IMG/VR virus record: IMGVR_UViG_3300011116_001007
DNA length: 64,000 bases
Origin: a virus
Lineage: Duplodnaviria > Caudoviricetes
Reading direction: 5' to 3' (one strand)
The notes under the pieces were generated by a model. The model worked only from the letters and a program-made list of their open reading frames with translations. It was not told the origin of the DNA and did no database searches. Position numbers and translations under genes: made by a program. Of this stretch, positions 8,314-47,381 are shown one piece after another (the first letter of the stretch is position 1; every line of letters begins with the position of its first letter).

Positions 8314-9417
8314 TTAAAGGTCGGGTAATTGATCGTAGTCAATGCTGTCACTCATGACTCCAATAACATAGTTAGTTGATTCGTTCTCTTGCAGTGCAGT
8401 TTGTTTCTTGCTGGTGTCCACATGTTTGTTGAACCACGGAATAGGTGTGCTCTTGGGTGCATTGCTTTGATACTTGATACCAATTTCTTTCAATGCTGCC
8501 ACTGCGGTGTAGTCTACAAAGTCTTTGAGCACGGCTGCATTCAATCCAATCACTGGGCCTTTGTTGAACAAGTAGTCGGCCCAGGCTTTTTCTTCGCGGA
8601 TCACATCCATGTACAATTGATAAACTTCGGCTTCGCACTCTTGTTTGATTGCTGCAAAACGATTGTCTTCTTTAATCACCTGATTGATGATATATGCTGT
8701 CCAGCCTTTGTGTAACAGTTCGTCTTGAAGAATCAAGCTGATGATATTGCCATTGCCAATGAAGATCTTGTTTTCAACCATGGCCAAACTGGTGGCAAAT
8801 GATACCATGAATCTGAATGCTTCCAATGCATAGCTGGCATGCAGTGCCATCCAAATAGCTTTGATGTGTGATTCTTCACTCACTGTTTTAGGATTGATTT
8901 CTTTGAAACAATTTAATTCATGTAGTTTGTCATAGTAGTTGCCCACACTCGACGCCATGTCAATGATTTCTTGTGTGTCATGTATGGTGTTGAACACATC
9001 CTTGGGCACATTGTAGATGTTACGGATGATATGACTATAACTCTTACTATGTATATTTGTTTCAAAGAATGTCCAGTTGTAGACTAGTGCTTCTAGCTCA
9101 GGCAAACTGATAACAGGCATGAATACCTGCGTTGGTCCCCGGCCTTGCAAACTGTCCAATGCAGTTTGTCTCAGCAGGTTACTGGTAAAAATATGTTTGA
9201 CTGCATCACTGGCATCTTTAAAATCATTTGCATCTTTACTCAGGCTGATCTCTTCTGGTTGCCAAAAGAATCCCCGTGCTGTTTCTTCAAATTTGGCAAT
9301 CTTGGAATATTTTACTTCTTCAAAACGTTGAATGGTCACTGGACCTGCTGGGTCCAAAAACATCTTGCGATTGAGATAGTCTGTTTTGGTTGTTAAATTG
9401 TATTGTGCTTGACTCAT
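8314..9417 (-). CDS. nrdB: ribonucleotide reductase class Ia beta subunit
   Basis: FFWQPEEI, LDSLQG, ETNIHSKSY, LEAFRF, DELLH di-iron ligands and C-terminal QENESTNY. Confidence 0.97.
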   Translation of the reverse strand: MSQAQYNLTTKTDYLNRKMFLDPAGPVTIQRFEEVKYSKIAKFEETARGFFWQPEEISLSKDANDFKDASDAVKHIFTSNLLRQTALDSLQGRGPTQVFMPVISLPELEALVYNWTFFETNIHSKSYSHIIRNIYNVPKDVFNTIHDTQEIIDMASSVGNYYDKLHELNCFKEINPKTVSEESHIKAIWMALHASYALEAFRFMVSFATSLAMVENKIFIGNGNIISLILQDELLHKGWTAYIINQVIKEDNRFAAIKQECEAEVYQLYMDVIREEKAWADYLFNKGPVIGLNAAVLKDFVDYTAVAALKEIGIKYQSNAPKSTPIPWFNKHVDTSKKQTALQENESTNYVIGVMSDSIDYDQLPDL

Positions 9418-13982: not shown

Positions 13983-14699
13983 CTATATGTGTTTGGTGTA
14001 GTATTCTTCTACTTTGCGCCACCACTGATCACAATATCGATTGTATTCTGTGCCCTCTAACACAAATTCTTGATATTGTGGTCGGCTGATGAGATTATGA
14101 TCAGCGTCAAGATCAGGTTTTACACACATCAGGATCACGCCCTTGCGTATTTTTGTGCCATGTAGTTCGTTGTGTGCTTCTGCATAGGCGCATAGTTGCA
14201 CAAAATAATCGTCAATCCATTCGCGTTTTTTGGGCTTGTTGGTCTGCTTGTAATCCAATATTGATTCTTCATTTAAATGCAGCCCAGCGCCGTCAGTTGT
14301 GCCTGCGTAGATCTTTGGAAAATACAGTGGAACTTCGATGCCCCAAAATTCATTCACATTTTTCAATCCCTTGGCAATCACAGTTTTGGCCATTTCGTGG
14401 CTTGGCCAACTGAATGGATTTGAGCCACGTTCTTTTATGGCACCTGTTTTGACATAATCTTCAAGATAGGTGTGCATGCGTGTGCCACGATTGGCAGCTT
14501 CTGTGGTAATTTGTTGAGCTTTTTCTGCACCCACAGCACGTCGCCAATTGTGTAAGGCTGCCTTGCTGGCTTCACTCTTGGTCTTGTCAAGAATAGTGGT
14601 CACTGATGGCAAGTTATTGCCATCTGGTGTGGCATAGAATCTTTTGCCTTCTATTGTGACTCGGGGTATGGGTTGATAGTTAAATTTTGGATTGTACAT
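13983..14699 (-). CDS. PD-(D/E)XK exonuclease (phage exonuclease/MGME1-like)
   Basis: LPSVTTIL, RGTRMH, YAGTTDG...ILDYKQT and QLCAYA motifs. Confidence 0.88.
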   Translation of the reverse strand: MYNPKFNYQPIPRVTIEGKRFYATPDGNNLPSVTTILDKTKSEASKAALHNWRRAVGAEKAQQITTEAANRGTRMHTYLEDYVKTGAIKERGSNPFSWPSHEMAKTVIAKGLKNVNEFWGIEVPLYFPKIYAGTTDGAGLHLNEESILDYKQTNKPKKREWIDDYFVQLCAYAEAHNELHGTKIRKGVILMCVKPDLDADHNLISRPQYQEFVLEGTEYNRYCDQWWRKVEEYYTKHI

Positions 14700-19688: not shown

Positions 19689-21707
19689 TCACTGGGGTTG
19701 AGGATTGTTTTTTGCTTTGTTTCTGGCGGTAAAATCAAATCTATTCACTGCTTTGCCATAGCCTGCAGGGGTTGCAAACACCCATCCTTCATTGCCGGGC
19801 ACCTGTGCATCTAGTTTTCCTAACATATCCAGTTTTAAGTCATGCAACATTTCAAACAACAAGAATGCCGCAGCCAACCCCTGTTCATTGCTGGTAGGAC
19901 TACTCAGGTACTGTGCAATGTTGCCAACTTTTTGTGGTGTTTGTGTTTGTTCCAACCAGGCTAAGAATCCAGGCACAAGGTCACGAAAATCACCTGTGTA
20001 GGCAGCGTGTCTTGGATCTACTCTTTTGTTTATGTAGTCTATGGCCAACTTGGCCAAGTCAGTGATCTTCATTGCACGTAGTTCACCAGGATTGAGCAAA
20101 GTATCTATAGCCTGACGATTTTGTCGTAGCAGTGTTTTGATCTGGTTGTACATGGGACTGTTCTTGGGTACAGGTTTTGCGGTGATTGGTTCTATCAGCA
20201 ACAATCCTTCCACAGGATTAAATTTGACTCCGCTGAGTGGTTGTTTGGCAGCACCTGCATCTGCATACATAGTGTGTACAGCCACACCTATGTTGCTGTT
20301 GGCAATTTGTTGTCCTAATTTGCTGTCCGCCGGAATACGATATGTCACAGTGTTGGGTCTAAATATCAGTAGTCCAGCAGACTTATAAACTGCGCCGGGT
20401 ACAATTTCTTCTTCTGTTGCTGGCAACGGGTTATTGGTGTTGGCCCAGTACATCAGATCTCCTTTGACATATCCACGGAAGTTTGTAGGAGTGGCTGCTT
20501 CAAGATATGGCCAAATAGCGTTGTATGTTGGCAGTAAAGTTTTGACTCTATCTGCTTTGTTGCCTTTGGCAACAGCATTAGCATCTCGTCGAGACATATC
20601 GTCAGCAATGGCATCTGTGCTGGTAAACAATCCATCGTAACCAGCTGCTGAAAAACCCGAATCATCTGTAAGCACAAACTCACCAGTTGCGGGCTTGCGA
20701 CCAAACACCACAGCAGGTTTTCCATCCCATTTTACGGATCCTGTTTGAGAATTTTTATAAAACCCATCAGCTATGGCCAATGCTTGGTCTACTCCAGCAC
20801 TGCCCTTGCGGAAAATATAATCTTCCAGGTGTTCGATGCCTTTGGCTTTTCCGCCTACAGCAGCAGGTTCTTGTTCGTAAAGTTGGTAAGATTTTTTAGT
20901 TTCAACCAAGGCCACGTATCCGCGATTCACAATGCGATCTCTTAATCTAGCTAGGAAATATGCGTCGCTTTCTTTCACAGATAAGTCGGGTTCTTGCAAG
21001 CCTTCGCCGGCTAGATAACCACGGAAGTCTTGAAGCTTGGCATCACGGTTGGGATCTTTGGCCAATGCAGCATAGATTGATTCTACATTCTTTAGATTGG
21101 CACGAGTAGCACCGCGTCCCAATAGCACCTGGGCCACATAATCAGGATCCAGGCCACCTTGTACCAGTTGATTTGTGGTTCTAGAGAACATGCCATTGGC
21201 GCCTACTTTGAGTCCCAGTTGTTTGGCTATGCTGCTCATTAGCACGTTTCGATTCATGCCTTTGTAAGCTGAGTCTGTGCCACCGCCATAAAAGAACTGT
21301 CCCCAATCCAAGTTGGGAAAGAACATAAAGTCAGTTTGCACAAATCCACGATTGGCATCACCGGCAATGGGTGTTTTTAAATGTACTTCCCCGCCCTTCT
21401 TGACCCATTCTCTAGGATCCAGTCCTTGGCTTTGTACAAATTGAGAAAGTATTCCAGCCAATTGTTCTTTTGAAACTTCATTCAGATCCACAGCAAGATC
21501 CAAGTCTCCTGATGAGGGGGCTTTGCCAGTTGACCCCAACCAACGCAATGGTATGCCATCGTCATCTTTGTCGGTGCTGAAATCTAAACCAGTAACTTGT
21601 TCTATCCATTGGACCGTTGCTGGTACATCTTGTCGATTGATACGCTGTGTAAGCGGTTCTTTGTTGGGCCCTTTGAATACATTTCCGCCTTCTAATAGAT
21701 ATCTCAT
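19689..21707 (-). CDS. fusion of Pol-beta-superfamily nucleotidyltransferase and ligase-like (KxDG) nucleotidyltransferase domain
   Basis: N-domain LGSTG...GDLDLAVD and VQTDF; C-domain SVKWDG, KGDLMY, NEGWVF and GKAVNR. Confidence 0.75.
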   Translation of the reverse strand: MRYLLEGGNVFKGPNKEPLTQRINRQDVPATVQWIEQVTGLDFSTDKDDDGIPLRWLGSTGKAPSSGDLDLAVDLNEVSKEQLAGILSQFVQSQGLDPREWVKKGGEVHLKTPIAGDANRGFVQTDFMFFPNLDWGQFFYGGGTDSAYKGMNRNVLMSSIAKQLGLKVGANGMFSRTTNQLVQGGLDPDYVAQVLLGRGATRANLKNVESIYAALAKDPNRDAKLQDFRGYLAGEGLQEPDLSVKESDAYFLARLRDRIVNRGYVALVETKKSYQLYEQEPAAVGGKAKGIEHLEDYIFRKGSAGVDQALAIADGFYKNSQTGSVKWDGKPAVVFGRKPATGEFVLTDDSGFSAAGYDGLFTSTDAIADDMSRRDANAVAKGNKADRVKTLLPTYNAIWPYLEAATPTNFRGYVKGDLMYWANTNNPLPATEEEIVPGAVYKSAGLLIFRPNTVTYRIPADSKLGQQIANSNIGVAVHTMYADAGAAKQPLSGVKFNPVEGLLLIEPITAKPVPKNSPMYNQIKTLLRQNRQAIDTLLNPGELRAMKITDLAKLAIDYINKRVDPRHAAYTGDFRDLVPGFLAWLEQTQTPQKVGNIAQYLSSPTSNEQGLAAAFLLFEMLHDLKLDMLGKLDAQVPGNEGWVFATPAGYGKAVNRFDFTARNKAKNNPQPQ

Positions 21708-23529: not shown

Positions 23530-24525
23530 TTAGTTTTGCATTTTGAACATCTGCTGAAACAGTTCTGGGAATACAGCACGCCAATCTGTGCCTCGTCGTT
23601 GATCAATAGAATCCAAGGTAGCAATTATTTTAGATTTTCTGTTGTCTGTATCTTTAAGAGCGAACACCCCATTTGTTAATTGTTGTCGGTGTTCTATAGG
23701 ATCTGTAAATCGCGTGGTGTGGAAATTTGTTTGCAGCCACTCTTCTAACTGTTTAAGATTGTCGGAATTTAGTATGCCAACTGAGGTATTGGTAGCAAAC
23801 ATACAATTGTGCGGCGCATTATCAATATACCATTGCAAATTATCTGTCACCTGAGCCCACTTTGCAGGGAACCGTTGGTATTCAAATCTTTCACCAACAT
23901 CATCAATACTAAAATCAAGTTGCACTAACTTAAATTGCTCCCACAAATTCAACAACTCTTTATTTGGTAATATAGTCCCATTGGTGTTGTAATTTAAGTG
24001 TACTTGATCTTTGTGCTCAATTGCATGTAACAATTTCACATGTTCTTTACTCAGCAACGGTTCACCGCCATTGAAATGTATAAATTGTATGCTGCTCAAG
24101 TCGATGGTTTTCCAAAACTGATTGGCCGTTGATTTTTGTAATTCTATAGGTAGCCCAAGTTCTTGTTTCCACACACTACTGTTATTCGGCCCGCATATTA
24201 CACAGGCCAAATTACATGTATCGCCAGTCCAGTAATCCATACGAATTAGCTCAACCTTGTTGTTGTTAAGATTGTGGTCTTTATACCAAGAGTTGCTGCC
24301 TTGCCGTCGGCTTGTTAGTCCAGCAGCTTCGGCATCTTTACAATTACTACACGCTGTTGGTAACTGTCCAGTAGATATCTCATTGCGAAGACCAACAAGG
24401 TATTTGTTGTTTAAAAAATCAATTACTTCAGCTGAGCGTACAGGAGATATACAACAAGGCGAAATTGCTAATGCATTTTGCTGAGCCACAATGTTTATAT
24501 TTTTATAAATGTCAATGCATGTCAT
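23530..24525 (-). CDS. radical SAM protein with N-terminal SPASM/twitch-like Cys cluster
   Basis: CNLACVIC, FNGGEP, NTNGT and SIDD; N-terminal PCC...CSNC. Confidence 0.9.
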   Translation of the reverse strand: MTCIDIYKNINIVAQQNALAISPCCISPVRSAEVIDFLNNKYLVGLRNEISTGQLPTACSNCKDAEAAGLTSRRQGSNSWYKDHNLNNNKVELIRMDYWTGDTCNLACVICGPNNSSVWKQELGLPIELQKSTANQFWKTIDLSSIQFIHFNGGEPLLSKEHVKLLHAIEHKDQVHLNYNTNGTILPNKELLNLWEQFKLVQLDFSIDDVGERFEYQRFPAKWAQVTDNLQWYIDNAPHNCMFATNTSVGILNSDNLKQLEEWLQTNFHTTRFTDPIEHRQQLTNGVFALKDTDNRKSKIIATLDSIDQRRGTDWRAVFPELFQQMFKMQN

Positions 24526-25973
24526 TATGACGTTTTAATAGTTTTCAGCAATTGATTGAGTTTGGTGCTTTCTACTACACCAACCACTTTGGCAACGTCT
24601 CCGTGATTGACCACTGGTTTGTCCCAGGCGTGTGTGCCACCTACAGGCGCTTGCCAAGCAGCATTGTCGCTGGCAACAACCTGACTCTTGGCCTTGATTG
24701 AGTCCATGATTGATGTTTGCGGTTTGTTATAACCAGTTCCTTCGTCGCCGCCCTCGTCTGTGATACGCATGGTCTCAATGTTGTATTCCAAATCAATCTT
24801 TTGTCCCACACCAGTCGAACTACGACTTTTCATGCATTGTATCTGATACTTGCCACGTTCTTTCATTGATCTGCTGGTAAAGATACCAAACACATTGTCT
24901 GCTGTGTTGATCTTTGAAATACCGCCTGCAATGTGACTGTGATCAAATTCTACTTCTTCCACTGCGCTGCGATTCAATTGACTTGCAGTTACCATTAATA
25001 TTTGCAGTTCTTTGGCCAAGTTACGTAGTTCTTCACTCACATACTTGTCTTTGATAAACTGGTCATTGGGATTGACTTTGACGCTGATTGGCATCAGCAA
25101 GTCTAGGTAATCAATCATCACAAAGTCTACCCGTTTGCCTGTTTGTATTTGATACTCTTTCAAGTACGATCTAATGTCATTGATGTTGCTTTGTGCTGGC
25201 AAACCTTTCACTTGGTAGTTGCCCGACTTCTTGGCCATCATTTTGACTTTGAGCTCTGTGGTATCGATGTCTCTGCGTATGTCTTTGGTGCTCATGTTTG
25301 TGAGCATGGCATCTGTTCTCAAGCTGGTCAAGTCTTCACTCAATTCCAAGGTAACATACACTCCGCTCAATCCTTGCTGCAACCAATTGAGTGCAATGTT
25401 CATCATGACCAAGCTCTTGCCTGATCCTGATCCTCCGGCAAAGATGTTCAGTTCACCACGACTGAATCCACCGTACAACAATCGATCCAGTTGTGGCCAG
25501 CCTGTGCTGACTTGCCCACCCGAGTTAAAATACTTGTTGATACGTTCGCTGGGATTGGCAAAATAGTCTGTGCCCATGTCCTTGGTCAAGCTGATCTGCA
25601 CTGCATCTTTGATCAGTTTTTCCACAGGACCATATTCACCTTTTTCCAACAGGTCTGCTGCTGCCAAGATCGCACGTTCTAGTTCTTGTCTGCGTGTGAA
25701 TGCTTCAAATTCTTCCATGAACCATTCATAGTGCCCTTCATTCAAATCAGGCACTGATTGTAATTTGATTCCAGTGGTGGCCGAGATCTGCGTGATATCT
25801 GGCAGAGTTTTGTGTTTTTCACTGTGTTCTTTAATAAACGCAGCCGCTGGTCTAAGATTTCGATCAAAGTTTTCTGGATTGTAAATGTTCTGCACACGCA
25901 CATAGCTGGCAGCATCCTCCAGCATCATTTCCAGGAATAATTTCTGTATATCAATTCCGTATTCTTTTAACAA
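24525..25973 (-). CDS. replicative DnaB-like helicase (T4 gp41-like)
   Basis: GGSGSGKS Walker A, TLEL, MIDYLD, TASQLNR and KSRS. Confidence 0.93.
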   Translation of the reverse strand: MLKEYGIDIQKLFLEMMLEDAASYVRVQNIYNPENFDRNLRPAAAFIKEHSEKHKTLPDITQISATTGIKLQSVPDLNEGHYEWFMEEFEAFTRRQELERAILAAADLLEKGEYGPVEKLIKDAVQISLTKDMGTDYFANPSERINKYFNSGGQVSTGWPQLDRLLYGGFSRGELNIFAGGSGSGKSLVMMNIALNWLQQGLSGVYVTLELSEDLTSLRTDAMLTNMSTKDIRRDIDTTELKVKMMAKKSGNYQVKGLPAQSNINDIRSYLKEYQIQTGKRVDFVMIDYLDLLMPISVKVNPNDQFIKDKYVSEELRNLAKELQILMVTASQLNRSAVEEVEFDHSHIAGGISKINTADNVFGIFTSRSMKERGKYQIQCMKSRSSTGVGQKIDLEYNIETMRITDEGGDEGTGYNKPQTSIMDSIKAKSQVVASDNAAWQAPVGGTHAWDKPVVNHGDVAKVVGVVESTKLNQLLKTIKTS

Positions 25974-26680
25974 GATTTTTTCCTTACAATATGATCAATG
26001 CACTCGTTAGCAAACAAACTTTGTACAGCGTCATCGCTGATGTGAAAGTACGGTCTAGTATTGGACCCATTAAGATGCCCGGCGTTTTTATGGGTGGTTC
26101 GATGATTCCACAGATTTGTCATTAATGCTTGCTCTTGATAATCGTTGGCAAGATTTTTTATATAGTTAGAATTTGTTAGCTGTCCAATATTATCAAGAAA
26201 TCCACCAGTACTATAGCAAAATGGTATTTTGTTTGTTGCACAGGTAGTCAGACACAACACCAAGTACATGTAATTTTTTATCATCTCCATGTTTATTGAG
26301 GCTGCAGAGGCTAACCAATGATCAGTTGTTTTTATTTTTTCTTTGTTTTCAAAATAACAAGTAGTAGTATAACGTTTTTTGATATAATCTGCAATATCTA
26401 GGTCACTAAAGGATCGAGGCAGCACAGCGGTGTCATTGTCAAATTCATATCGAAGCGGATTGGTAAAAGAAAATATTACAAAATCAGGATTTAACTTCAT
26501 TCCTTGCATCATTTGCAATGAAATCAATGCATTGCTGCTGCCCCCGTAGGCTAGATTAGAAATTTTAAAATTCGGCGAGTAATTTGATATTTTCTCTGAC
26601 CAATGCAATCCTGGAAAGTCAGGGTCGGTCACACAAAAACTATCACCACAAATAAGAATGTGAACTTCATCGTTTGACAA
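25967..26680 (-). CDS. SGNH-hydrolase-like protein
   Basis: CGDSF, NLAYGGSSN and PYFH; AT-rich; lies between primase and helicase. Confidence 0.65.
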   Translation of the reverse strand: MSNDEVHILICGDSFCVTDPDFPGLHWSEKISNYSPNFKISNLAYGGSSNALISLQMMQGMKLNPDFVIFSFTNPLRYEFDNDTAVLPRSFSDLDIADYIKKRYTTTCYFENKEKIKTTDHWLASAASINMEMIKNYMYLVLCLTTCATNKIPFCYSTGGFLDNIGQLTNSNYIKNLANDYQEQALMTNLWNHRTTHKNAGHLNGSNTRPYFHISDDAVQSLFANECIDHIVRKKSC

Positions 26681-27641
26681 TTTGTTTTTTCCTCATTTCT
26701 ATTTTGATTCGACTAGTGTTTCTGTTTTCAAATATAGTTAGCATGGTTGCCAACTGACCATAACGAACCACACTGTCGTTGACATCTTTGACATCATCTG
26801 GCCACGGCGGCATACTCACCGCCCATCCCAGTTCTACTGCACGATCTACCAGTTCCATACCTGCCAAGTCCTGATCAGGTACCACGGTTATTTCTTTGCC
26901 TAAACTACGGATCAACCGTGCCTGCTCATCTGATATGGTGTTATGCATCACTGCCAAGCCACCAATGCACAGTGCATCAAATATGCCTTCAACAACAATT
27001 GCATTGGTCCAATTGTCGTGCTGCAAATCTGTTCCAAACACATATCCAGGTTGGCTGTCAGTGATGTACTTGGGTCGCCGGTTATCCAAGAATCTTTGTG
27101 AGTACCCCACTATGCGATCATTGTGTGTGAATGGAATAATTACACTGGGACGATTTTTCCAAGACCTTTCTTCGTGAAGCTGTACCATCACAGGATAGTC
27201 ATCGGGCACTTTTCTTGAACGAAGATACTCTCGACGTTCATATGAATCATCCAATAACTCACTCATTGGCGGCAATTCTCTTTCTTCAAACTCTATGCCA
27301 GACAGCACATTAAACATACGTTGTCGGTCATCCAGGATGCCATGCACACTGCGATGTCTTAGACTTTCTAAGTTTAATATGTCGATCTCAGCATCGGGCA
27401 CACCTAACCAGCCCAAGAGCCTGCGGGCCTTAAAACTCACTGTACGGCCAAGGATAAAGCTAGCGGTGTAGTTGCAGTTGAAGCAGTGATAACTCCAACC
27501 CGATTCTGTGGGTTTGAGACCTCCTCGACCACGTTTATCTGCTGTACCAGCATTGTGTTGACAACACACAGCATTGAAACTTACCCAACCTGATGGTGTG
27601 GCTTTTCGTTTTGCTGGCAAATATTGTAGGATGTCTAGCAT
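26667..27641 (-). CDS. DNA primase (T4 gp61-like)
   Basis: Zn-binding CC...HCFNC, PKY, VEGIFDA and PDQD TOPRIM motifs. Confidence 0.9.
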   Translation of the reverse strand: MLDILQYLPAKRKATPSGWVSFNAVCCQHNAGTADKRGRGGLKPTESGWSYHCFNCNYTASFILGRTVSFKARRLLGWLGVPDAEIDILNLESLRHRSVHGILDDRQRMFNVLSGIEFEERELPPMSELLDDSYERREYLRSRKVPDDYPVMVQLHEERSWKNRPSVIIPFTHNDRIVGYSQRFLDNRRPKYITDSQPGYVFGTDLQHDNWTNAIVVEGIFDALCIGGLAVMHNTISDEQARLIRSLGKEITVVPDQDLAGMELVDRAVELGWAVSMPPWPDDVKDVNDSVVRYGQLATMLTIFENRNTSRIKIEMRKKQIVKR

Positions 27642-28793: not shown

Positions 28794-29171
28794 ATGGGCA
28801 ATAATGTTTTCGAAAAATTAACTGAGAAATATCCATTTATCAGCTTGTGCATGTATGCCAATGCTGAATATGTGGGTGTGATACAGAACAAAGATGATGT
28901 GGTCACCACCATCTACGACTTTGGTGCAGTGGCAGATCAAGCTGACAAACTGAATTACCTGGAGTTGGCATCTGTTTGGTGGTGGGAAAGCAATAGATCC
29001 ATTCCCATAAACATATTTCTGCGTAAAGATTGGGAACAATTTCGCTACACATTACGCACGTTTGTCAACAAAGACCTAGAAATCTTGCATGGCCCTGCTT
29101 GCAGTTTGTTGGACATAGCCCGCAAAAAAAGCAAACGAAAAAGTATTATGCTGGTTCGCCGACTTGAGTAA
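28794..29171 (+). CDS. hypothetical late protein
   Basis: 125 aa with basic C-terminus; TAAATA 6 nt upstream. Confidence 0.75.
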   Translation: MGNNVFEKLTEKYPFISLCMYANAEYVGVIQNKDDVVTTIYDFGAVADQADKLNYLELASVWWWESNRSIPINIFLRKDWEQFRYTLRTFVNKDLEILHGPACSLLDIARKKSKRKSIMLVRRLE

Positions 29172-29724
29172 GTAGATTCATGTGTAGTGCAACCAAGGCT
29201 GCGTAACCAAGTGCATGAGCTTTCTTAAACACATATCCCCGACCAAGATCACCATCCCATACTGAGTCAAACACCTCTGACCACGGCTTATTCTGCAGGT
29301 GTGCCTTGCCTGGACGTATCACAGATATGAATGCTGCCATTCTAGGAATTGAGTTGGGCTGCATGGTCCTTAGTAGTTCAGTGTAATTTCCCACGTGAAC
29401 CAGTTGGCTTGCCCAGGCTGGATCTGTCCACAATTTTGCCCATGGTGGCTCTGCTGTCGACATCAGTTCGTAGTGTGCAGGATCTTTTACCAGTCCGTAC
29501 ACACTCATGTTCAACAAGTCAATCTTGAAGTAGCCACGTGATTCGGCTGTTTCGTAATCCAAGGCAGCGCATCCTAACACAGGATCCAGTGGAATGTCAG
29601 TCACATACACACCCGAATTGTGTTTTCTTGCTGTGCCTTGATACAGTTGCCGTGCAGGTGTGTGCTGTATCAGCTTCAGCACATGTTCTCTGTCGGCAAA
29701 ATCAATGTCAATATCTGCACTCAT
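29146..29724 (-). CDS. miniature C-family (DnaE/Pol III alpha-like) polymerase core
   Basis: DIDIDF, RKHNSGVYV, GYFKIDLL, SVIRPG and GYVFKKAHALGY are collinear with DnaE PDFDVDF, GKHAGGVVI, GLVKFDFL, LFRPG and GYGFNKSHSAAY. Confidence 0.85.
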   Translation of the reverse strand: MSADIDIDFADREHVLKLIQHTPARQLYQGTARKHNSGVYVTDIPLDPVLGCAALDYETAESRGYFKIDLLNMSVYGLVKDPAHYELMSTAEPPWAKLWTDPAWASQLVHVGNYTELLRTMQPNSIPRMAAFISVIRPGKAHLQNKPWSEVFDSVWDGDLGRGYVFKKAHALGYAALVALHMNLLTQVGEPA

Positions 29725-30500
29725 ATCAAATTCAATTTTTTTATTGTTGGTAATAATATTTTTTCAGCAAACGATCGATGTGCATCTGCTTGATAGTGAC
29801 CTATTCCTGGCCGATCAATAAAATCAAAAGGAACAAATCCTTGTTGATTGCTCCAGCTACAAAATCCAAAGTTATCAAGATCAATAAATCGAGGATCATT
29901 TACTATCTCATTTCGAAAGAAATCTAACAAATAGTCAGAATCTAACTTTTCTGGAGTTACACAATTAAACACTAAAAAATTAATATCAAGTCGATCCAAT
30001 AATGATTTCAACATGATTAGATCACAAAATAAATTTATACGCTCAGCATACGGACTATAAAAATAAGCTCGCCCCTCGGTATATTTTTTGTAGAACTTTT
30101 CTTCTAACAGATGTGGATTCTTAGCATCCTGGAAAAATCCTTGCAGTAGTGTTTCTCTCCAGTTCAGTTGATTACTAAACACATGAGTGCCAAAATTGCT
30201 TTCTTCAGATTTCAATGGCTGGCTATTGTCTATCCATAACTCTGATCTAATCTCAAAAGTTAGCCCAATCAACGCAATTGTTTTTTGTTGAGGATTTAAC
30301 TGTCTTTGTTGAATCATGTCATGAACCGTGGTCCTGATAATTCTACGATTGCAACTGCCAGATATAGCACGATTCATAACATATCCGGGCAGATGTTCAT
30401 TGACTACATAATCATATGTTTTGTCCTGCATTGTGGGACGATATTTCGGATTACTGTAACTGTCTCCATTGCAATAGATCATCGTATGCGATGTACTCAT
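29721..30500 (-). CDS. SGNH-hydrolase-like protein
   Basis: NGDSYS, NRAISGSCN and GHYQADAH; AT-rich. Confidence 0.65.
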   Translation of the reverse strand: MSTSHTMIYCNGDSYSNPKYRPTMQDKTYDYVVNEHLPGYVMNRAISGSCNRRIIRTTVHDMIQQRQLNPQQKTIALIGLTFEIRSELWIDNSQPLKSEESNFGTHVFSNQLNWRETLLQGFFQDAKNPHLLEEKFYKKYTEGRAYFYSPYAERINLFCDLIMLKSLLDRLDINFLVFNCVTPEKLDSDYLLDFFRNEIVNDPRFIDLDNFGFCSWSNQQGFVPFDFIDRPGIGHYQADAHRSFAEKILLPTIKKLNLI

Positions 30501-30501
30501 T

Positions 30502-31176
30502 TTACCATCCTGCCTGTTTCAACATTTCCTGTGCGTACTCGTGATCTGTGGGATATGTTTGAAATTTTTTCTGCCAAACGTCTGAATCAATATACATCCA
30601 AATCATGGCCACTTGTTCCGTACCTAGCTCACTCAAAAACTTTTGCCCAGACTCTGAACTGTAAATCACCCAAGGGCTGATTCGTCCAGTGGTTATGGCA
30701 TGGCATATCACATTGGCATTGCCATAACGCAAACAATCATGTGCAGGGTTATTGGTTTTTTCAGCCCAGTCCAATCCGTATTCCATGGCTCGTGCTAGCG
30801 CATCATCCACTGCTTCCAGTGTGAGATAATTTACCAAGTATTCAGTATACACTTGATCGCTGCACCAACGATCAATTTTTTTTTGTTGTTTCAGCAGCCA
30901 GGCCATGAATCGTTCAGGATTGATCACGCGAGTGTTCACACAGTAATGACCAAACTTCACAAACGCACGATAGTAGGATGACGTTTCAAAATCTTCAAAT
31001 GTTTTGTTCTTGGCTGAACCTTGCATGGTTTCGTAAAACCTCACATAGGCCTGCAATGCCAGTTGTACTCCTCTATCGCCGCGTTGCAGCCTGCGACGTT
31101 TGGGTTCGCACATGTGTACTTCTATACTGCTTTCTCTTGAGAAAGTTTTTTCACAGTATCCGCAAGTGAATGTCAT
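30502..31176 (-). CDS. hypothetical protein with N-terminal C2H2/C2HC zinc finger
   Basis: CGYC...F...S...HMC N-terminus. Confidence 0.7.
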   Translation of the reverse strand: MTFTCGYCEKTFSRESSIEVHMCEPKRRRLQRGDRGVQLALQAYVRFYETMQGSAKNKTFEDFETSSYYRAFVKFGHYCVNTRVINPERFMAWLLKQQKKIDRWCSDQVYTEYLVNYLTLEAVDDALARAMEYGLDWAEKTNNPAHDCLRYGNANVICHAITTGRISPWVIYSSESGQKFLSELGTEQVAMIWMYIDSDVWQKKFQTYPTDHEYAQEMLKQAGW

Positions 31177-32452: not shown

Positions 32453-33204
32453 GTCTTTGACAGTTTTATTATTTCCGCATGCACAGCATCTGCTACTTTT
32501 TGCTGAGTGGCCTGATCTGTGTGAAAAGGTCGATCGTCATTGTAATCTGGGTGCATGACATAAGTATCACCTACCATCTTGCCTTGCATTTGATAATCAA
32601 ACATGGCACGACCCAGTGACAGTTTCATGTCTATTGGAACAATTCCTGATTTTTCTGCTTGATGATGCCAATGCGCCAGAATCCAAGAGTCAACTTCTTG
32701 ATACAATGCTTCGTTAAAAAAATATTTAAAATGGTATTCAATGGCTCGGTGTTGATCTTTGGTAATTATCAAAGTAGGACTGGTTTCAAGTCCTTGTGGC
32801 ACTGTACTCAGTATGGGTGCGTCATTGTCGGGAGTTTGTACTCCATTGGAGGATGTGCAAATTGGGTTGTGGCCAACATAAGTGGTGTAGGAACTTTCAT
32901 CATCCGTGAATGGATATATGAAATTTTTCAATCCTTTTTCAACTTGAAAATTGTCATTTACTAACAAGTTCAACCGGCTGCTCCAGGTGCTGTGGTACAA
33001 TAAAAATCTACATCCGATTTCAACTGCTTCTCGCATTTGCCAGGCAATGCCAAGATTGTCCATAGAAGACCTTGCCAAACACAATACCGAATATCCATAT
33101 TGATCTTGCAATATTTGGCTGTAATGATCTCTAGCATTGCTGGTTGCCGAACTAAAACTGTCACCACACACTATTATATCAAATTTCATTTTATCTTCAT
33201 CCAT
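32449..33204 (-). CDS. SGNH-hydrolase-like protein
   Basis: CGDSFS, CLARSSMDN and RPFH. Confidence 0.6.
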   Translation of the reverse strand: MDEDKMKFDIIVCGDSFSSATSNARDHYSQILQDQYGYSVLCLARSSMDNLGIAWQMREAVEIGCRFLLYHSTWSSRLNLLVNDNFQVEKGLKNFIYPFTDDESSYTTYVGHNPICTSSNGVQTPDNDAPILSTVPQGLETSPTLIITKDQHRAIEYHFKYFFNEALYQEVDSWILAHWHHQAEKSGIVPIDMKLSLGRAMFDYQMQGKMVGDTYVMHPDYNDDRPFHTDQATQQKVADAVHAEIIKLSKT

Positions 33205-34655
33205 TCCAGTTTCTCAGCAGTAAATGGATAATTGGCTTCTTTGTAAAACACCTTGCGTTTGTTTAGGTGTCTGCGAGCAAATTTGCACGTACTAGTAATA
33301 TCCCATATCTGCACATGATCTTTGTCTTCGGCTTTGCGGATGCCGCGCCCGATGCTTTGTATCACTCGCACAAAACTCTTGCCAGGTTCAATCAGCACCA
33401 GATTAAAGATCCGCGGAATGTTGATGCCCACAGCAGCCACACCATATGTGGCCACGATGATCTTGCCGTCGCTCACAGCAATCTCATCATATTCTTCCTG
33501 ACGTACTTTGGCTTTAGTGGCTCCAGAAACAAACACGGCATGTTCACCCAGTCGTTCCACAAGCTGTCGACCACATTCAGTTCGATCTACCAAGACCAAA
33601 GTATTGCCTGTTTCGTTAACTTGTTGTATCAACGTTGCCATGGTATCCAGGCGGCCAGATTCTTCAAGAAGATATTTTAGTTCCGCTTGATAGTCAGCGT
33701 ATTCCACATGATCTACCAATTGCACTATGTTCACATGACAATTGGCTAAAACACCAGCGTCCTGCAATGTGCTTGCAGACAGTCTGCTGATAACTGGGCC
33801 TAGGCTGACCAGCAAGGCCTGACTTTCAAACAGTTCTTTGGGCACTGTTCCAGTCAAGCCCCAGCGAATTGGCACTCTAGCCATTACACCTGTGAGTAAA
33901 GTTTTTAGTGCATCTGCTTTGGCCATGTGTACTTCATCCACTATCACACACACCACACCTTCAATGAACTCTTGAATGGTGCAATCGCCTACGCCGTTCT
34001 TGGTGTTCTTCATAAGATTGTTTAGACTTTGCCAGGTGCAGATGGTGTGTGTTCGACCGTATTCTTTTCTGTCTCCGAAATACACACCCACATCCAGGTC
34101 CATGTTGATGTAGTCTTTTTCTGTTTGTGTAACCAGACTCTTGTTGGGCACAATCACTATGCTACGACCATATGCACTGACTGCGTCGCTGAGTGCTGCT
34201 GTCATTATGGTTTTGCCTGCACCCGTGGCCACTTCTTGTATGCATTGTGGATTGGTCAAGAAGTTGTTGATGATCTCCACCTGGTAGTCACGCAACAAGA
34301 TTGGTTGGCCTGCTGCAGGATGGTTCTCAGGCCATGCTTTGTTTGCATAACTTTGTTCCGTTACCTGAGCAAACTCAAATGTAGTTGAGTATTCTCTGCG
34401 GTCGTCCAGTTCAATGTCGTAATCAAATCGTTCCAACAAAGGAATAATATCCGGCAACAAATTGATATATGTGCTGCCGCCCAGTTGGAAGTAAGATACC
34501 TTGCCATCCCAGCGACCCAGCCGTACTGCCGGCAAATATCTTGCATACGGAATATCATATTTGAATGACTTGACCAAGGCTTTGCGAGCATCAAGATCAA
34601 GTCCTTCAATTTTGATGTTCACTTCGTCATTGATTTGTATTGTTGCTAGTTTCAT
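33186..34655 (-). CDS. uvsW: SF2 helicase UvsW
   Basis: LRDYQ, ATGAGKT, VDEVH, GLTGT, VGINIP and QSIGRGIR. Confidence 0.92.
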   Translation of the reverse strand: MKLATIQINDEVNIKIEGLDLDARKALVKSFKYDIPYARYLPAVRLGRWDGKVSYFQLGGSTYINLLPDIIPLLERFDYDIELDDRREYSTTFEFAQVTEQSYANKAWPENHPAAGQPILLRDYQVEIINNFLTNPQCIQEVATGAGKTIMTAALSDAVSAYGRSIVIVPNKSLVTQTEKDYINMDLDVGVYFGDRKEYGRTHTICTWQSLNNLMKNTKNGVGDCTIQEFIEGVVCVIVDEVHMAKADALKTLLTGVMARVPIRWGLTGTVPKELFESQALLVSLGPVISRLSASTLQDAGVLANCHVNIVQLVDHVEYADYQAELKYLLEESGRLDTMATLIQQVNETGNTLVLVDRTECGRQLVERLGEHAVFVSGATKAKVRQEEYDEIAVSDGKIIVATYGVAAVGINIPRIFNLVLIEPGKSFVRVIQSIGRGIRKAEDKDHVQIWDITSTCKFARRHLNKRKVFYKEANYPFTAEKLEWMKIK

Positions 34656-35767: not shown

Positions 35768-36793
35768 TTAGGCCGCTTTCATGCAAGTGGTTTCTGCTAG
35801 ACGTTTCCAATTGCCTGTGCTGAGTTTACGCAAGTCAGCAATCTTCAATGCCATACGCAAGCTCATTTCGCGCAGGCGATTTTGATTGGCATTCATGAAG
35901 TCAATGATCTCGTCTTGCATGCAAGGCTCAAAATCATAGTCTTGGAACAACACGCCGTCTTTGGCAATCTGCTTGATACGCAAGATTTTGTCTTGCATGG
36001 TATCCAGCGTCAAGTCCAAGTAGTGGCAACGACTTTGCAGTGCATCCAAGTGATCGCGCAGTTTCTGCGATTTCATTGTTTCAAACTTCAAGTTGGTGAT
36101 AAAGATCACACTGCCTTTGAAGTCGAATTGATCTGGGATGCCTTCACGACGCAAGGTGCTAGACTCACTCAGCCAGGAAATTTTACGTTTCTTGCCTGAG
36201 TCAAGAGCACCTTTCAGCAAGTTCAATGCCACGTCATCAACGAGAATACTGTCGCAGTCATCAAATACCAATACGCAATTATCATCGCTGTATTTGTACA
36301 AGGTTTGATACAGGCCAATGGGAGTGGCTGAACCTTTGACAACTTCTGCTCGCAGTCGTTTACCTGCCAGTTTATCAAACAGCGTGGCTTTTTCAATTTC
36401 TTGTTCCACGCCATAGCTCTTGCCCACGCCCGGGGGACCCGACACAATCATTGCACGGATGTCGCCACCAATTGCGGCTTTGGTCATTTCTGTAAGAATT
36501 TCAAAACGCTCACGGATACGATCCATGGCTTGTTCTTCAGTTTCTTTGGCTTGTGCCGGCACTGCGGCAATTTGCGGTTGTGCTGTCACACTGTCTCCTG
36601 ATACCATCTCATAGTCAGAGATAGCGTTTACTTTGATACGAATGGTGCTGGGGCAGTTGGCGAATGTGCCGTCATTTTGCACAGTCACATAGCCGCCTTT
36701 GGCACCGGTTTGAAAACCTGACACTAGAGCAAAGCTCTGATTTTTTACAGTTTTGCCGCGGTACTCGCCGCGAATAATACGAATAGCACTCAT
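35768..36793 (-). CDS. AAA+ ATPase with small N-terminal domain
   Basis: GPPGVGKS Walker A, LVFDDCD Walker B, FITN sensor 1 and LQSRC arginine finger. Confidence 0.9.
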   Translation of the reverse strand: MSAIRIIRGEYRGKTVKNQSFALVSGFQTGAKGGYVTVQNDGTFANCPSTIRIKVNAISDYEMVSGDSVTAQPQIAAVPAQAKETEEQAMDRIRERFEILTEMTKAAIGGDIRAMIVSGPPGVGKSYGVEQEIEKATLFDKLAGKRLRAEVVKGSATPIGLYQTLYKYSDDNCVLVFDDCDSILVDDVALNLLKGALDSGKKRKISWLSESSTLRREGIPDQFDFKGSVIFITNLKFETMKSQKLRDHLDALQSRCHYLDLTLDTMQDKILRIKQIAKDGVLFQDYDFEPCMQDEIIDFMNANQNRLREMSLRMALKIADLRKLSTGNWKRLAETTCMKAA

Positions 36794-45610: not shown

Positions 45611-46063
45611 TTACACCTGGATATCTTCCATGCCTGCAGTTCTTAGACGGACCACATGCCCCATCTGCCATTGCTTGGTATCTAGGCCTTTCATGATGCC
45701 CAGCCAGCGATTGCGTAGGTATGCCACTTCATTGATGATGGTTTCGTAATCAATCACTTCATCTTCGCCTTCCACATACTTTTCTGCATCTCTACTGGTC
45801 AAGGCACGGGCATAGCCTTCTAGATACTTTTGAAAATGCTTCCTGCGTATTTTACGTAGTTGTATGTTGAGATAGTTCAACACAGCTTCAATTTCTTGCA
45901 GCTGGTTGAACCGTTGTTCGGTAATGCCCGGCAGCGCAGTGATGTTTTTTTCTACTACTCCGCCAATCTTGCAGTCTTTCTTGGCATCCTCAAGCTCACG
46001 CTCGTAGTGACTGATAAAGTCTGGAATAGCAGTCAAGCTGGCTGTTACGCGACTGTACCACAT
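45611..46063 (-). CDS. uvsY: recombination mediator UvsY
   Basis: FQKYLEGY...SRDAEKYVEGE...KGLDTKQWQM; downstream of uvsX. Confidence 0.8.
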   Translation of the reverse strand: MWYSRVTASLTAIPDFISHYERELEDAKKDCKIGGVVEKNITALPGITEQRFNQLQEIEAVLNYLNIQLRKIRRKHFQKYLEGYARALTSRDAEKYVEGEDEVIDYETIINEVAYLRNRWLGIMKGLDTKQWQMGHVVRLRTAGMEDIQV

Positions 46064-46329
46064 TAATTTTCCCAGTCGTCTTCGTGATAATCCTCTTCTT
46101 CTTCAACTTCGTCCTCTTCTGCATAATCCTTGTCGTCGTCAAGGTAAACTGTGAGAGCACGTTTGATATCGGGTTCACCTTTGAAAGTGTCTTTGATATC
46201 ATCAACATCACAGTCGTTGTCAATCAAGATGGCCACCACTGTTTCGGCTGCTTCATCTCGATCCACTGTGTTTACGTAACGTTTGAGTTCGCTCCAGATC
46301 TCACTGGCCACTGCTACTGCTTCATTCAT
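46063..46329 (-). CDS. small acidic hypothetical protein
   Basis: 88 aa with a D/E-rich C-terminus, between uvsX and uvsY. Confidence 0.75.
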   Translation of the reverse strand: MNEAVAVASEIWSELKRYVNTVDRDEAAETVVAILIDNDCDVDDIKDTFKGEPDIKRALTVYLDDDKDYAEEDEVEEEEDYHEDDWEN

Positions 46330-47381
46330 TCTGCTGTCTCCTCGATGGTACTTACCTCTTCTTTATGATTTCCAAAGTCTTTCATTGCACGATCCAAACA
46401 GCCTTCCTCGTTGGCTTCCCACTTCTTGCGGAACTTCTTGATGATCTCACCATCGCTGGTCACAAACACCAGGCTGTTGCCTTCTTTCTTTAGCAGACTG
46501 CGTTTTTCCATGAGATCTACCATGCCGCTGTAAGGACTCATACCTGTTTCATAAGGAATCTTGACCTGTACACCTTCAAAGGGTTTTGAGTAACGTGTTT
46601 TCATAACCTTACAGGCAGCACGGATGCCCATGACGTCTGTGATCTTGTTGCCATCCTCGTCCTCTTTGAGTTTGAGTTTTTTCATGGCCACAACAATTGA
46701 ACTGGCGTAGATGAATCCTTGTCCACCAGAGATTTTATCATCTGGGTCAAACATATCTTGCGAAGCGTATGTGTGATTGGTACACACCAGGCCCACATTG
46801 TAACTGCCAAACATGTTGACACAATTACGTACAAGACTGGTAAGTGCTTTGGGCTTACGACCCAGATCACCTTTCATCTCGCCTGCATCAAACTGATTCA
46901 CGTCAGTGGGGGTAAGCAACATGCCCAGGCTGTCAATCACAAACATCACTTTGGGACGCTCACCATCGGGTAAGGCCTTGTAGTCGCTCATGAATGTGCT
47001 GATTGTTTTGGCCACATCGTCGATCATGGCCATGCTCAATTTGAGCAATTTGTCTTGGCCGGTATCCACACCCAGTGCCTTGAGCCAGTCTTCGTCTAGT
47101 GCATTTTCGCTGTCAATCAACACCACATAGATACCCTGTGCTTGGGCGTTCTTGATGATGTTACCTGAACAGATATAACTTTTGCCTGCGCCGGATTCAC
47201 CAGCAAACACAGTGACCTTGCCTAGAGGAATACCTCGATTGAAGTCACCAGATATTAAATAATTTAAGGCATAGTTGCCTGTACTGATCCAGTCTGTGGG
47301 ATCGTTGAAGCCGATTGAAAGACCTTCAATGCTTTTGGTTATTTCCTTGCGGAACTTGCTTACGTCAAATGGTTTTGCCAT
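46326..47381 (-). CDS. uvsX: RecA-like recombinase UvsX
   Basis: ISTG, GESGAGKS, IDSENAL, VIDSLG, CTNH and SGGQG...YASS. Confidence 0.95.
   Translation of the reverse strand: MAKPFDVSKFRKEITKSIEGLSIGFNDPTDWISTGNYALNYLISGDFNRGIPLGKVTVFAGESGAGKSYICSGNIIKNAQAQGIYVVLIDSENALDEDWLKALGVDTGQDKLLKLSMAMIDDVAKTISTFMSDYKALPDGERPKVMFVIDSLGMLLTPTDVNQFDAGEMKGDLGRKPKALTSLVRNCVNMFGSYNVGLVCTNHTYASQDMFDPDDKISGGQGFIYASSIVVAMKKLKLKEDEDGNKITDVMGIRAACKVMKTRYSKPFEGVQVKIPYETGMSPYSGMVDLMEKRSLLKKEGNSLVFVTSDGEIIKKFRKKWEANEEGCLDRAMKDFGNHKEEVSTIEETAE

Follow-up and report, generated by a model that had tools for sequence, protein, structure and literature searches.

All bacteria use C-family DNA polymerases as their replicases, and those that have been characterised are, to our knowledge, all large, multi-domain enzymes. 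Bacillus subtilis has both DnaE and PolC, a non-proofreading second C-family polymerase operating beside the main replicase, and the DnaE genes of cyanobacteria are well known to be split by inteins; Dassa and colleagues reportedly described 'fractured genes' of phages in 2009. Closest to the present locus is the 'minimal split DNA polymerase III alpha' that was predicted by comparative genomics in the group 2.2 jumbo phages (Iyer, Anantharaman, Krishnan, Burroughs, Aravind 2021, Viruses 13:63, PMC7824862), in a paper whose passages on this enzyme also suggest, on sequence grounds, an ancestral-core model of the bacterial replicase. This was the only relevant paper found in the literature, where we found no experimental work on a split mini-Pol III alpha.

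The window analysed here is a 64-kb stretch (64,000 nucleotides) of DNA from an uncultured freshwater/river giant phage, and the ORF under study is the C-terminal unit (C-unit) of this published minimal split Pol III alpha, a kind of protein already described in 2021, to which the window contributes a further member, this one from freshwater. Three findings are new or have now been measured for the first time: natural single-chain fusions of the two halves, a dN/dS close to 0.1, and phrog_11637 as a convergent neighbour that is conserved. The C-unit gene and its motifs are positioned as follows.

29146..29724, minus strand: ORF of 192 aa, the predicted C-terminal (Mg2+- and template-binding) unit of a split minimal Pol III alpha, identified from phrog_11778, a PDB profile search, a structural model and dN/dS
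29701..29715, minus strand: codons of D4-I-D6-I-D8, the DxDxD strand, metal ligands by HMMER alignment to E. coli D401/D403/D405
29611..29622, minus strand: H35-N-S-G38, the HxxG motif of the palm that follows the deleted thumb, within model strand E31-40
29518..29526, minus strand: K67-I-D69, equivalent to E. coli K553-F-D555 (third catalytic Asp) by HMMER alignment
29308..29316, minus strand: R137-P138-G139, the RPG motif of the fingers (E. coli about 639-641) by profile alignment
29215..29229, minus strand: F166-K-K-A-H170, a finger motif equivalent to E. coli F756-N-K758-S-H760 by profile alignment

These motifs succeed one another as DIDID (D4, D6, D8), KHNSG (H35..G38), KID, RPG and GYVFKKAH (residues 163–170), an order collinear with that of the C-family polymerases. 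Among 81 diverse homologues, 27–64% identical to the query, K67, D69 and P138 are invariant (81/81); D4 and D6 are each present in 80 and D8 in 78, R137 and H170 in 80 each, H35 and G38 in 79 each and K167 in 76, and residue 168 is Lys or Arg in 79. D4, D6, D8 and D69 are retained in 81 of 81 close relatives.

The relation to Pol III alpha is visible by family profile and fold comparison only. Single-sequence searches with the C-unit are blank, a Pfam scan giving no match and a phmmer search of PDB sequences nothing relevant. The C-unit does match PHROG 11778, 'DNA polymerase' (E 4.2e-49), with its residues 3–187 falling on profile positions 7–193 of 197, and a profile built from the 81 diverse homologues finds Pol III alpha chains only when compared with the PDB (nine chains, E 1e-5 to 1e-4). 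This profile aligns collinear stretches, which correspond to E. coli residues 539–641 and 739–769, together with 399–417, a stretch that is weak by itself. An AlphaFold (AF2) model of the C-unit has a pLDDT of 95.6, with low confidence confined to the last 10 residues (mean pLDDT 45 in the last block). Compared by VIA-align, it matches 14 C-family polymerase entries with Z of 7.9–9.8 over 180–188 of its 192 residues, within model residues 1–190; the best match is to PolC 3f2b (Z 9.8, rmsd 3.5, 187 residues aligned), Taq 3e0d gives a Z of 9.2 and E. coli 2hnh a Z of 7.9 over its residues 399–780, and the best unrelated fold reaches 3.4. We conclude that the C-unit ORF is a true collinear homologue of the C-family palm and fingers core.

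The core is much reduced. About 190 residues of the C-unit cover a stretch that takes about 380 in E. coli alpha, with E. coli residues 418–538, the thumb region, represented by about 34 residues and 642–738 by about 10. The chain stops near E. coli residue 780–781, ahead of the clamp-binding, HhH, OB and tau-binding regions, and it begins three residues ahead of the DxDxD strand, so that it has neither a PHP domain, whose absence is also seen in the Pfam scan, nor a GRGS segment. The palm is accordingly incomplete in this polypeptide, which carries the acidic triad and lacks the GRGS segment. The initial annotation had read a 192-aa ORF at exactly these coordinates as a miniature C-family core, with all three catalytic Asp equivalents and the HxxG, RPG and GYxFxKxH motifs in collinear order, with most of the thumb insert and finger subdomains deleted, and with the PHP, HhH, OB, clamp-binding and GRGS elements absent. 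That description is borne out in each part, by the PHROG, PDB-profile and fold matches, by the HMMER register of D4/D6/D8 and D69 on E. coli D401/D403/D405 and D555, by the two reduced regions and by a span limited to E. coli 399–780. The lack of a thumb and of any recognisable clamp-binding or proofreading element in the C-unit counts against its reading as part of a DNA polymerase, which would have to hold primer-template DNA.

We consider it probable that the C-unit forms one half, the C-terminal one, of a minimal C-family (Pol III alpha-like) nucleotidyltransferase that a jumbo phage of the Rak2/PA5oct type ('group 2.2') makes as two polypeptides. This half carries the Pol-beta-like palm β-strands on which the metal-binding aspartates (D4/D6/D8 and D69) sit, together with a much smaller finger module (RPG, FKKxH), and it lacks the GS-motif helix-strand element that binds the triphosphate of the incoming nucleotide. 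The GS motif is the triphosphate-binding element that defines the Pol-beta-fold nucleotidyltransferases (NTases). In relatives, the missing piece is the product of a separate gene of about 170 aa (the N-unit), which ends where the C-unit begins and is rarely fused to it in frame.

Such in-frame fusions occur naturally in three metagenomic lineages (P0176, P0391 and P0392; 375–376 aa), each consisting of phrog_11127 joined to phrog_11778, and the PF07733 match in the fused proteins runs over the junction. One alignment of the fused proteins with N-units and many C-units (A2) placed the N-units on the C half and was set aside; in the alignment used instead (A3), the ends of the N-units and the starts of the C-units meet at one 10-residue linker of the fusions. 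The model of a fused protein is moderately confident (pLDDT 71, with values under 50 for some of the palm sheet, residues 208–242). It superimposes on residues 304–800 of Mtb DnaE1 with a Z of 19.8 (289 residues, rmsd 3.2) and on residues 270–773 of E. coli alpha with a Z of 15.5, and the other Pol-beta NTases, Cid1, MenT and Pol beta, match it with Z of 3–4, none exceeding 4.

These comparisons bear on the suggestion that the N-unit and C-unit together form a two-piece nucleotidyltransferase of the DnaE lineage that is not a template-directed DNA polymerase, but a terminal transferase, an enzyme of RNA or primer synthesis or the source of a nucleotide signal. The Pol-beta NTase fold serves many chemistries, as the weak matches to Cid1, MenT and Pol beta recall, and an enzyme that has lost its thumb, a large part of its fingers and every DNA-clamping module, in a phage lineage already provided with a family B polymerase, might have been turned to one of them. 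The C-family match, however, spans both fingers and palm, at Z values for the C-unit and the fusion (9.8 and 19.8) far above those of the other NTases, and the finger motifs of DnaE and PolC (RPG, F-x-K-x-H) are under strong selection, which together make this suggestion quite unlikely in our judgement.

The partner is not encoded in the window. In a motif scan of the 64 kb, none of the open frames contained a GRGS-type motif, and the N-half of a fusion and three N-units, used as tblastn queries, gave chance matches only; the genes that neighbour the N-unit in the related genome G001 (GroES-like and others) are absent from the window too. All five related complete or near-complete genomes searched, which include the three most divergent ones, have exactly one PF07733 match, and in each case this is a separate N-unit ORF, of about 170–196 aa, lying 4–116 kb from the C-unit gene. 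The N-unit covers PF07733 positions 13–97, above the cut-off, and its terminus reads '...GVGRGSSVASYVLYLL...EFLR-stop', with EFLR coming straight after GVGRGSS. In tblastn searches, 96 jumbo-phage records match the C-unit with a coverage of at least 80%. A fused query finds 186 matching places in these 96 cultured phage records, and no record has a place that spans both halves, from which it follows that about 90 cultured jumbo phages possess both. About six of the 96 have one place only, and at least one of these, W12-3 (109.5 kb), is a partial genome. For each half there are more than 7,900 metagenomic protein clusters.

These distributions support the reading of the C-unit as one subunit of a putative split enzyme, with the GRGS-bearing partner encoded at another place. 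The initial annotation had noted the missing GRGS segment, which the scans of the window confirm, and had proposed a split replicase; the five genomes, the roughly 90 of 96 phages and the fusions support a split subunit with a separate partner, and the label 'replicase' is not supported, given that relatives also carry a family B polymerase. No family B polymerase was found in the 64-kb window, just as had been stated for gp43, and one is present elsewhere in the genome in each of the three relatives searched. The annotation's other option, that the C-unit acts alone as a minimal primer-extension enzyme or metal-dependent NTase, draws on the presence of all the acidic metal ligands in this chain, on the confidence with which it is modelled by itself (pLDDT 95.6) and on the few records with a single matching place. 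We regard it as highly improbable, the C-unit having no GS motif of its own, its N-unit partner co-occurring in five of five full genomes and in nearly all of the phage records, W12-3 among the exceptions being partial, and the natural fusions uniting the two halves.

The C-unit gene lies within a string of replication and recombination genes (helicase, primase, DnaB, gp32-like SSB, UvsX and UvsY), and the window also encodes RNR and TerL. The nearby genes are as follows.

24525..27641, minus strand: downstream replication genes, namely primase, a 237-aa ORF and DnaB-like helicase, from PHROG matches
24525-25973, minus strand: DnaB-like helicase (phrog_19, E 6e-71)
26667-27641, minus strand: primase (phrog_47, E 6e-32)
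28794..29171, plus strand: convergent gene for a 125-aa protein of phrog_11637 (E 3.8e-29), a conserved neighbour that shares 26 nt with the C-unit gene where their 3' ends overlap
29721..30500, minus strand: ORF of 259 aa, a variable insert that separates the zinc-finger gene from the C-unit gene, its stop overlapping the C-unit start (ATGA)
30502..31176, minus strand: 224-aa protein that begins with a C2H2-like zinc finger (phrog_11058, E 1.7e-54), a conserved upstream neighbour
33186..34655, minus strand: SF2 DNA helicase, further upstream within this gene string (phrog_16, E 2e-70), in an order shared with phage Ettore

Synteny around the C-unit is kept from freshwater phages to Pseudomonas phage Ettore. 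The phrog_11058 gene, in whose product the zf-C2H2 score is 20.9 bits and under the Pfam cut-off, lies directly upstream of the C-unit gene in G001, G002 and Ettore. Members of the phrog_11637 family are found in Ettore (ETTORE_0018), SCTP-2 (gene 152) and G001, and one is convergent right after the fused gene in L092; an atlas search with the convergent gene at 28794–29171 returned sub-threshold look-alikes only. The insert ORF has no Pfam or PHROG match and is missing at the corresponding place in G001, and river-metagenome contigs join position 29719 to 30496, omitting 776 nt. PHROG matches uphold the primase and helicases that the initial annotation had placed nearby, and its probable clamp-loader subunit is not confirmed: the product of 35768–36793 has one weak AAA match (22.5 bits), belongs to phrog_1250 ('unknown function') and has no significant PDB sequence match, and we describe it as a weakly matched AAA+ ATPase only. 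Two metatranscriptome runs contained only short pieces, 85–95% similar and mostly over the neighbouring phrog_11637 gene, and these argue in neither direction on transcription of the C-unit gene. A protein identical to the C-unit is also encoded on a 3.3-kb contig.

Selection on the C-unit is strong. Its median dN/dS is 0.11 (46 unsaturated pairs of IMG/VR relatives), every motif is intact in 80 of 80 IMG/VR relatives, and homologues keep a steady length of about 185–215 aa down to 27% identity. Loss or neutral drift of the catalytic Asp residues had been named at the outset as the mark of a decaying fragment, and the comparison finds these residues kept and the gene under purifying selection, not neutral evolution. 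That the C-unit is a functionless remnant of a full-length phage or host dnaE, as its coverage of about one sixth of DnaE and its blank single-sequence Pfam scan might suggest, is contradicted by this purifying selection, by the intact catalytic and finger motifs and stable length, and by thousands of metagenomic homologues and conserved synteny, and we dismiss it. Equally implausible is post-translational joining of the halves by a split intein, familiar as intein-split cyanobacterial DnaE genes are: the N-units of relatives terminate immediately behind '...EFLR' and carry no intein N-fragment, only M-S-A precedes the D4/DxDxD strand, so that there is no room for an intein C-fragment, and the junction of the fusions is a plain 10-residue linker.

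With no intein at the break, assembly of the N-unit and C-unit would have to be non-covalent, and in the two-polypeptide enzyme that we favour the two proteins would associate to rebuild a single active site. This site may carry out template-directed DNA synthesis with two Mg2+ ions, as in DnaE and PolC, and the split enzyme would work beside the family B replicase rather than as the main replicase. The absence of a thumb, of a PHP or exonuclease domain, of an OB fold and of a clamp-binding tail suggests that it is probably a short-patch or accessory polymerase, acting in repair, gap filling or primer extension. A bolder proposal, which we offer tentatively and hold to be rather unlikely, is that the replisome has an active second polymerase in the two-piece mini-Pol III alpha, which as a heterodimer of about 360 aa would perform primer extension or gap filling before handing over to the family B replicase. 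If that were true, giant phages would run a mixed C-family/B-family replisome, an unusual arrangement, and the natural 375-aa fusion would be the smallest known C-family DNA polymerase and a working model of the ancestral bacterial replicase core. A two-piece core with about 360 residues in all, preserved by strong purifying selection across thousands of environmental giant phages, would show the minimum that is needed for catalysis, and would also reveal what the PHP, thumb and clamp-binding parts contribute.

Among known systems, the split Pol III alpha of the group 2.2 phages is the nearest. The C-unit is 28–42% identical to the units of PA5oct, RaK2, 121Q, GAP32, CBB, Atu_ph07 and SCTP-2 and shares their architecture, from the DxDxD strand to past the FKKxH finger motif, and relatives of this phage likewise have a distant partner gene and a family B polymerase. 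It differs from the cultured copies in being no more than 42% identical to any of them and in having the extra 259-aa ORF just upstream. The natural single-chain fusions found in this analysis have no mention in the passages of Iyer et al. 2021 (PMC7824862) that deal with the split enzyme.

With DnaE (E. coli 2HNH/5FKU, T. aquaticus 2HPI/3E0D, M. tuberculosis 5LEW) and PolC (G. kaustophilus 3F2B), the C-unit shares the Pol-beta-like palm strands, the acidic residues and the order of the finger motifs, and the C-family match, at Z 7.9–9.8 for the C-unit, rises to 15–20 for the fused homologue. In contrast to these enzymes, its chain has no PHP domain or GS segment, about 34 residues are left of the thumb, the fingers have lost about 90, and no β-clamp motif, HhH, OB or tau-binding domain follows after about E. 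coli residue 781. These missing domains, together with the division into two genes beside a family B polymerase, mean that the C-unit is not DnaE or PolC proper.

The intein-split DnaE and the fractured genes offer the parallel of a C-family catalytic subunit derived from two distant genes, whereas here no intein fragments are present at the break, which falls between the GS helix and the DxD strand. The DnaE and PolC pair of B. subtilis is a functional analogy, in which a second C-family polymerase could extend primers or fill gaps; in the giant phages, by comparison, a split core of about 360 aa is the second enzyme, next to a main polymerase of family B.

The C-unit, the Pol III alpha-like half that carries the acidic metal ligands, is encoded in the window by a single ORF, and the sequence-level details with which the initial annotation described it are all confirmed.

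29146-29724, minus strand: C-unit ORF, 192 aa, N-terminus M-S-A-D-I-D-I-D-F
28794-29171, plus strand: phrog_11637 gene, 125 aa, convergent with the C-unit gene, 3'-end overlap of 26 nt

The C-unit ATG shares the sequence ATGA with the stop codon of the upstream ORF. The reported motifs DIDID (D4, D6, D8), KHNSG (H35-G38) and KID (K67, D69) occur in the DnaE order, and RPG (137-139) and GYVFKKAH (163-170) are likewise collinear with DnaE.

Single-sequence searches with the C-unit give no match in Pfam and none among PDB sequences. PHROG 11778 ('DNA polymerase', a 197-position profile) covers it over its full length with E 4e-49, and the Pol III alpha-type PHROG 405 matches weakly (E 1e-4). An exhaustive HMMER search identifies 370 homologous cluster representatives. 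When the query was aligned with 79 full-length representatives and the C half of one fused protein (27-64% identity to the query), the resulting profile matched nine PDB sequences, E 1e-5 to 1e-4, all nine being Pol III alpha (E. coli, Thermus, M. tuberculosis); the collinear E. coli stretches are 539-641 and 739-769, together with 399-417, which is weak by itself. The AlphaFold2 model built from this alignment has a mean pLDDT of 95.6, and its top 17 Foldseek matches are all C-family polymerases. Superposition with VIA-align gives Z 9.8 for PolC (3f2b, chain 970-1295; 187 residues, rmsd 3.5), 9.2 for Taq (3e0d, 460-838), 9.0 for Mtb DnaE1 (5lew) and 7.9 for E. coli (2hnh, 399-780), the top unrelated entry reaching only Z 3.4. 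Since the PHROG match, the profile comparison with PDB sequences and the fold comparison agree, we conclude that the homology to the C family is real.

Residue equivalences in E. coli alpha, from the register of the profile alignment to PDB sequences
D4, D6, D8 of the C-unit: D401, D403, D405
K67, D69: K553, D555
R137-P138-G139: about 639-641
F166-K-K-A-H170: F756-N-K758-S-H760

Some 190 residues of the C-unit thus span about 380 in E. coli alpha. The thumb region (418-538) is represented by about 34 residues and the stretch 642-738 by about 10, and there is no counterpart of the PHP domain (before residue 270) or of anything past about residue 781; the alignment thereby bears out the thumb and finger deletions and the absence of PHP and C-terminal modules noted initially. 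The C-unit is not a DnaE or PolC proper, as a PHP domain, a single-chain palm, a thumb and C-terminal modules were each looked for and are each lacking.

Conservation is strong throughout. K67, D69 and P138 are invariant in the C-unit alignment; D4, D6, R137 and H170 are each kept in 80 of 81 sequences, H35 and G38 each in 79 and D8 in 78. At all 80 IMG/VR loci with copies 69-87% identical the ORF is intact and every motif is present, the median dN/dS is 0.106 (pairwise Nei-Gojobori against the window's C-unit gene, 46 pairs with unsaturated dS), and metagenomes hold more than 7,900 C-unit clusters at 90% identity. These observations point to purifying selection and dismiss a decaying fragment, for which loss of the catalytic Asp residues or neutral evolution had been proposed as the signs.

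No GRGS segment is present in the 64-kb window. The partner was identified through P0176, a 375-aa metagenomic protein from the representative search, in which residues 190-373 are a C-unit and the first half contains '...VIGVGRGSSSASLLL...'. Searched against the whole records of three relatives, this first half finds one ORF in each, of 169-196 aa, the GRGS-bearing N-unit, whose C-terminus reads '...VIWGVGRGS[SA]VASYVL[YF]L[LI]..[VI]DSL.Y.LD..EFL[RK]-stop'. Pfam PF07733 (Pol III alpha NTPase domain) matches the N-unit over profile positions 23-94, above the curated cut-off. Each of five genomes searched with PF07733, among them the three most divergent that carry a C-unit, has exactly one match. 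In metagenomes the N-unit is as abundant as the C-unit; in the phage collection it matches 93 records, with the taxon profile of the 96 C-unit records. A fused query finds 186 places in these 96 phage records, none spanning both halves, and at least one of the single-place records is a partial genome.

Distance between the two halves
RsoM2USA: about 4 kb
Stenotrophomonas phage CM1: about 15 kb
Ettore: about 44 kb
G001 (345-kb IMG/VR contig): about 95 kb
SCTP-2: about 116 kb

At the N-unit loci L084:676-2623 (G001) and L082/L083, the preceding gene codes for about 200-235 aa and overlaps the N-unit gene, after which stand a small gene and one for a GroES/gp31-like co-chaperonin (phrog_931/phrog_3188), in that order.

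The two halves are fused in three metagenomic clusters, whereas they lie apart in all 96 cultured phage records. The fused proteins P0176, P0391 and P0392 are single ORFs of 375-376 aa, with 78-81% mutual identity and differing data sources. One of them, encoded at L092:519-1649, comprises phrog_11127 (N-unit, residues 8-180) and phrog_11778 (C-unit, residues 190-375), followed, as in the window, by a convergent phrog_11637 gene. PF07733 runs unbroken over the junction of P0176 (residues 97-207), and in an alignment of fused proteins, N-units and C-units a single 10-residue linker starts where the split N-units end and finishes where the split C-units begin. The AlphaFold2 model of P0176 is moderate (pTM 0.66, residues 208-242 weak); at pLDDT 71 it superimposes on Mtb DnaE1 304-800 with Z 19.8 (289 residues, rmsd 3.2), on Taq 292-830 with Z 19.5, on PolC 817-1288 with Z 18.7 and on E. 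coli 270-773 with Z 15.5, the next folds being other Pol-beta-type NTases with Z of at most 4. From these matches, N-unit plus C-unit correspond to the DnaE palm from its first residue together with a minimal finger module, of which the window gene is the second half. If they are active, no C-family polymerase core would be smaller than these fusions, which would also be handy for experiments.

The natural fusions, and the single N-unit in all five relatives' genomes, support the suggestion of a split enzyme with its GRGS partner encoded elsewhere and disfavour the stand-alone enzyme offered beside it. An intein-split DnaE is rejected, since only three residues precede the DxDxD strand of the C-unit and the relatives' N-units extend no further than the helix that comes after the GS motif. 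Nor is there an intein at the break, where the fused forms carry a plain linker, so that the halves, if they work together, must assemble non-covalently.

The C-unit matches in the phage collection are confined to jumbo phages (96 records), among them PA5oct-like Pseudomonas phages (42% identity), RaK2, 121Q, GAP32, CBB, Atu_ph07, SCTP-2, XacN1-like and RsoM2USA phages; the window DNA itself is present in viral, river and freshwater metagenomes.

Other features of the window
1-774, minus strand: ATP-dependent DNA ligase, part of gene
8314-11735: RNR, both subunits
13983-14699, minus strand: exonuclease (phrog_298)
24525-25973, minus strand: DnaB-like helicase
26667-27641, minus strand: primase
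29721-30500, minus strand: 259-aa insert ORF between the zinc-finger gene and the C-unit, N-terminus ...CNGDSYS...
30502-31176, minus strand: phrog_11058 protein, 224 aa, N-terminal C2H2-like zinc finger (CxxC...HxxxC), Pfam score under cut-off
33186-34655, minus strand: SF2 helicase
35768-36793, minus strand: AAA+ protein, 341 aa, phrog_1250 (E 4e-84), weak AAA match (22.5 bits), faint DnaC-like match
45611-46063, minus strand: UvsY
46326-47381, minus strand: UvsX
49296-50285, minus strand: gp32-like SSB
53800-55383: large terminase

The order helicase, phrog_11058 zinc-finger protein, C-unit, convergent small gene, primase and DnaB is common to the window, Pseudomonas phage Ettore and two large IMG/VR contigs, and in G001, G002 and Ettore the phrog_11058 gene immediately precedes the C-unit. 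The phrog_11637 gene is tightly linked to the C-unit, as it holds the equivalent position in Ettore, SCTP-2 and G001 and beside the fused gene in L092; an Atlas search with it gave no lead. The 259-aa ORF has no family match and is missing from the equivalent place in G001. River-metagenome contigs splice 29719 to 30496, omitting exactly the intervening 776 nt, and we conclude that the ORF is a cassette present in some members of the natural population and absent from others. Of the replication neighbours first proposed, the primase and helicase stand; the 'probable clamp-loader subunit' is an AAA+ ATPase without significant match among PDB sequences, and its clamp-loader identity is putative. 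No family B polymerase was found within the 64 kb, as originally remarked, and one is encoded elsewhere in the genome in all three relatives searched. Two radical-SAM-domain proteins (phrog_14086 and related) are encoded on the minus strand at 23530-24525, adjoining the DnaB gene, and at 57841-58989, and a 672-aa protein at 19689-21707 (minus strand) matches phrog_455.

We consider it probable that the C-unit supplies one of the two parts of a functional C-family NTase. The two proteins would form one Pol-beta-like active site, in which the GS loop of the N-unit would bind the triphosphate of the incoming nucleotide, D4 and D6 (with D8) and D69 of the C-unit would bind two metals, and the RPG and FKKxH fingers would contact template and nucleotide, as in DnaE and PolC. 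For such an enzyme, template-directed DNA synthesis is the predicted activity and a fairly likely one. Because thumb, proofreading domain and clamp-binding tail are all missing, the enzyme would more probably act on short patches, as an accessory to a family B replicase, than carry out bulk replication; the role suggested by Iyer et al. 2021 (PMC7824862) is one-strand synthesis or repair.

A literature search found no later experimental paper on the split minimal Pol III alpha. The present analysis adds naturally occurring fusions of both units in one chain, a measured strength of selection and the invariable pairing of the units in the most divergent genomes; it also adds two neighbouring genes that are conserved, phrog_11637 (convergent, overlapping) and phrog_11058 (zinc-finger, upstream). 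Compared with the split minimal Pol III alpha as described by Iyer et al. (PMC7824862), the window ORF is exactly the C-terminal unit, and its product is a freshwater, uncultured member of this computationally described system, a predicted enzyme.
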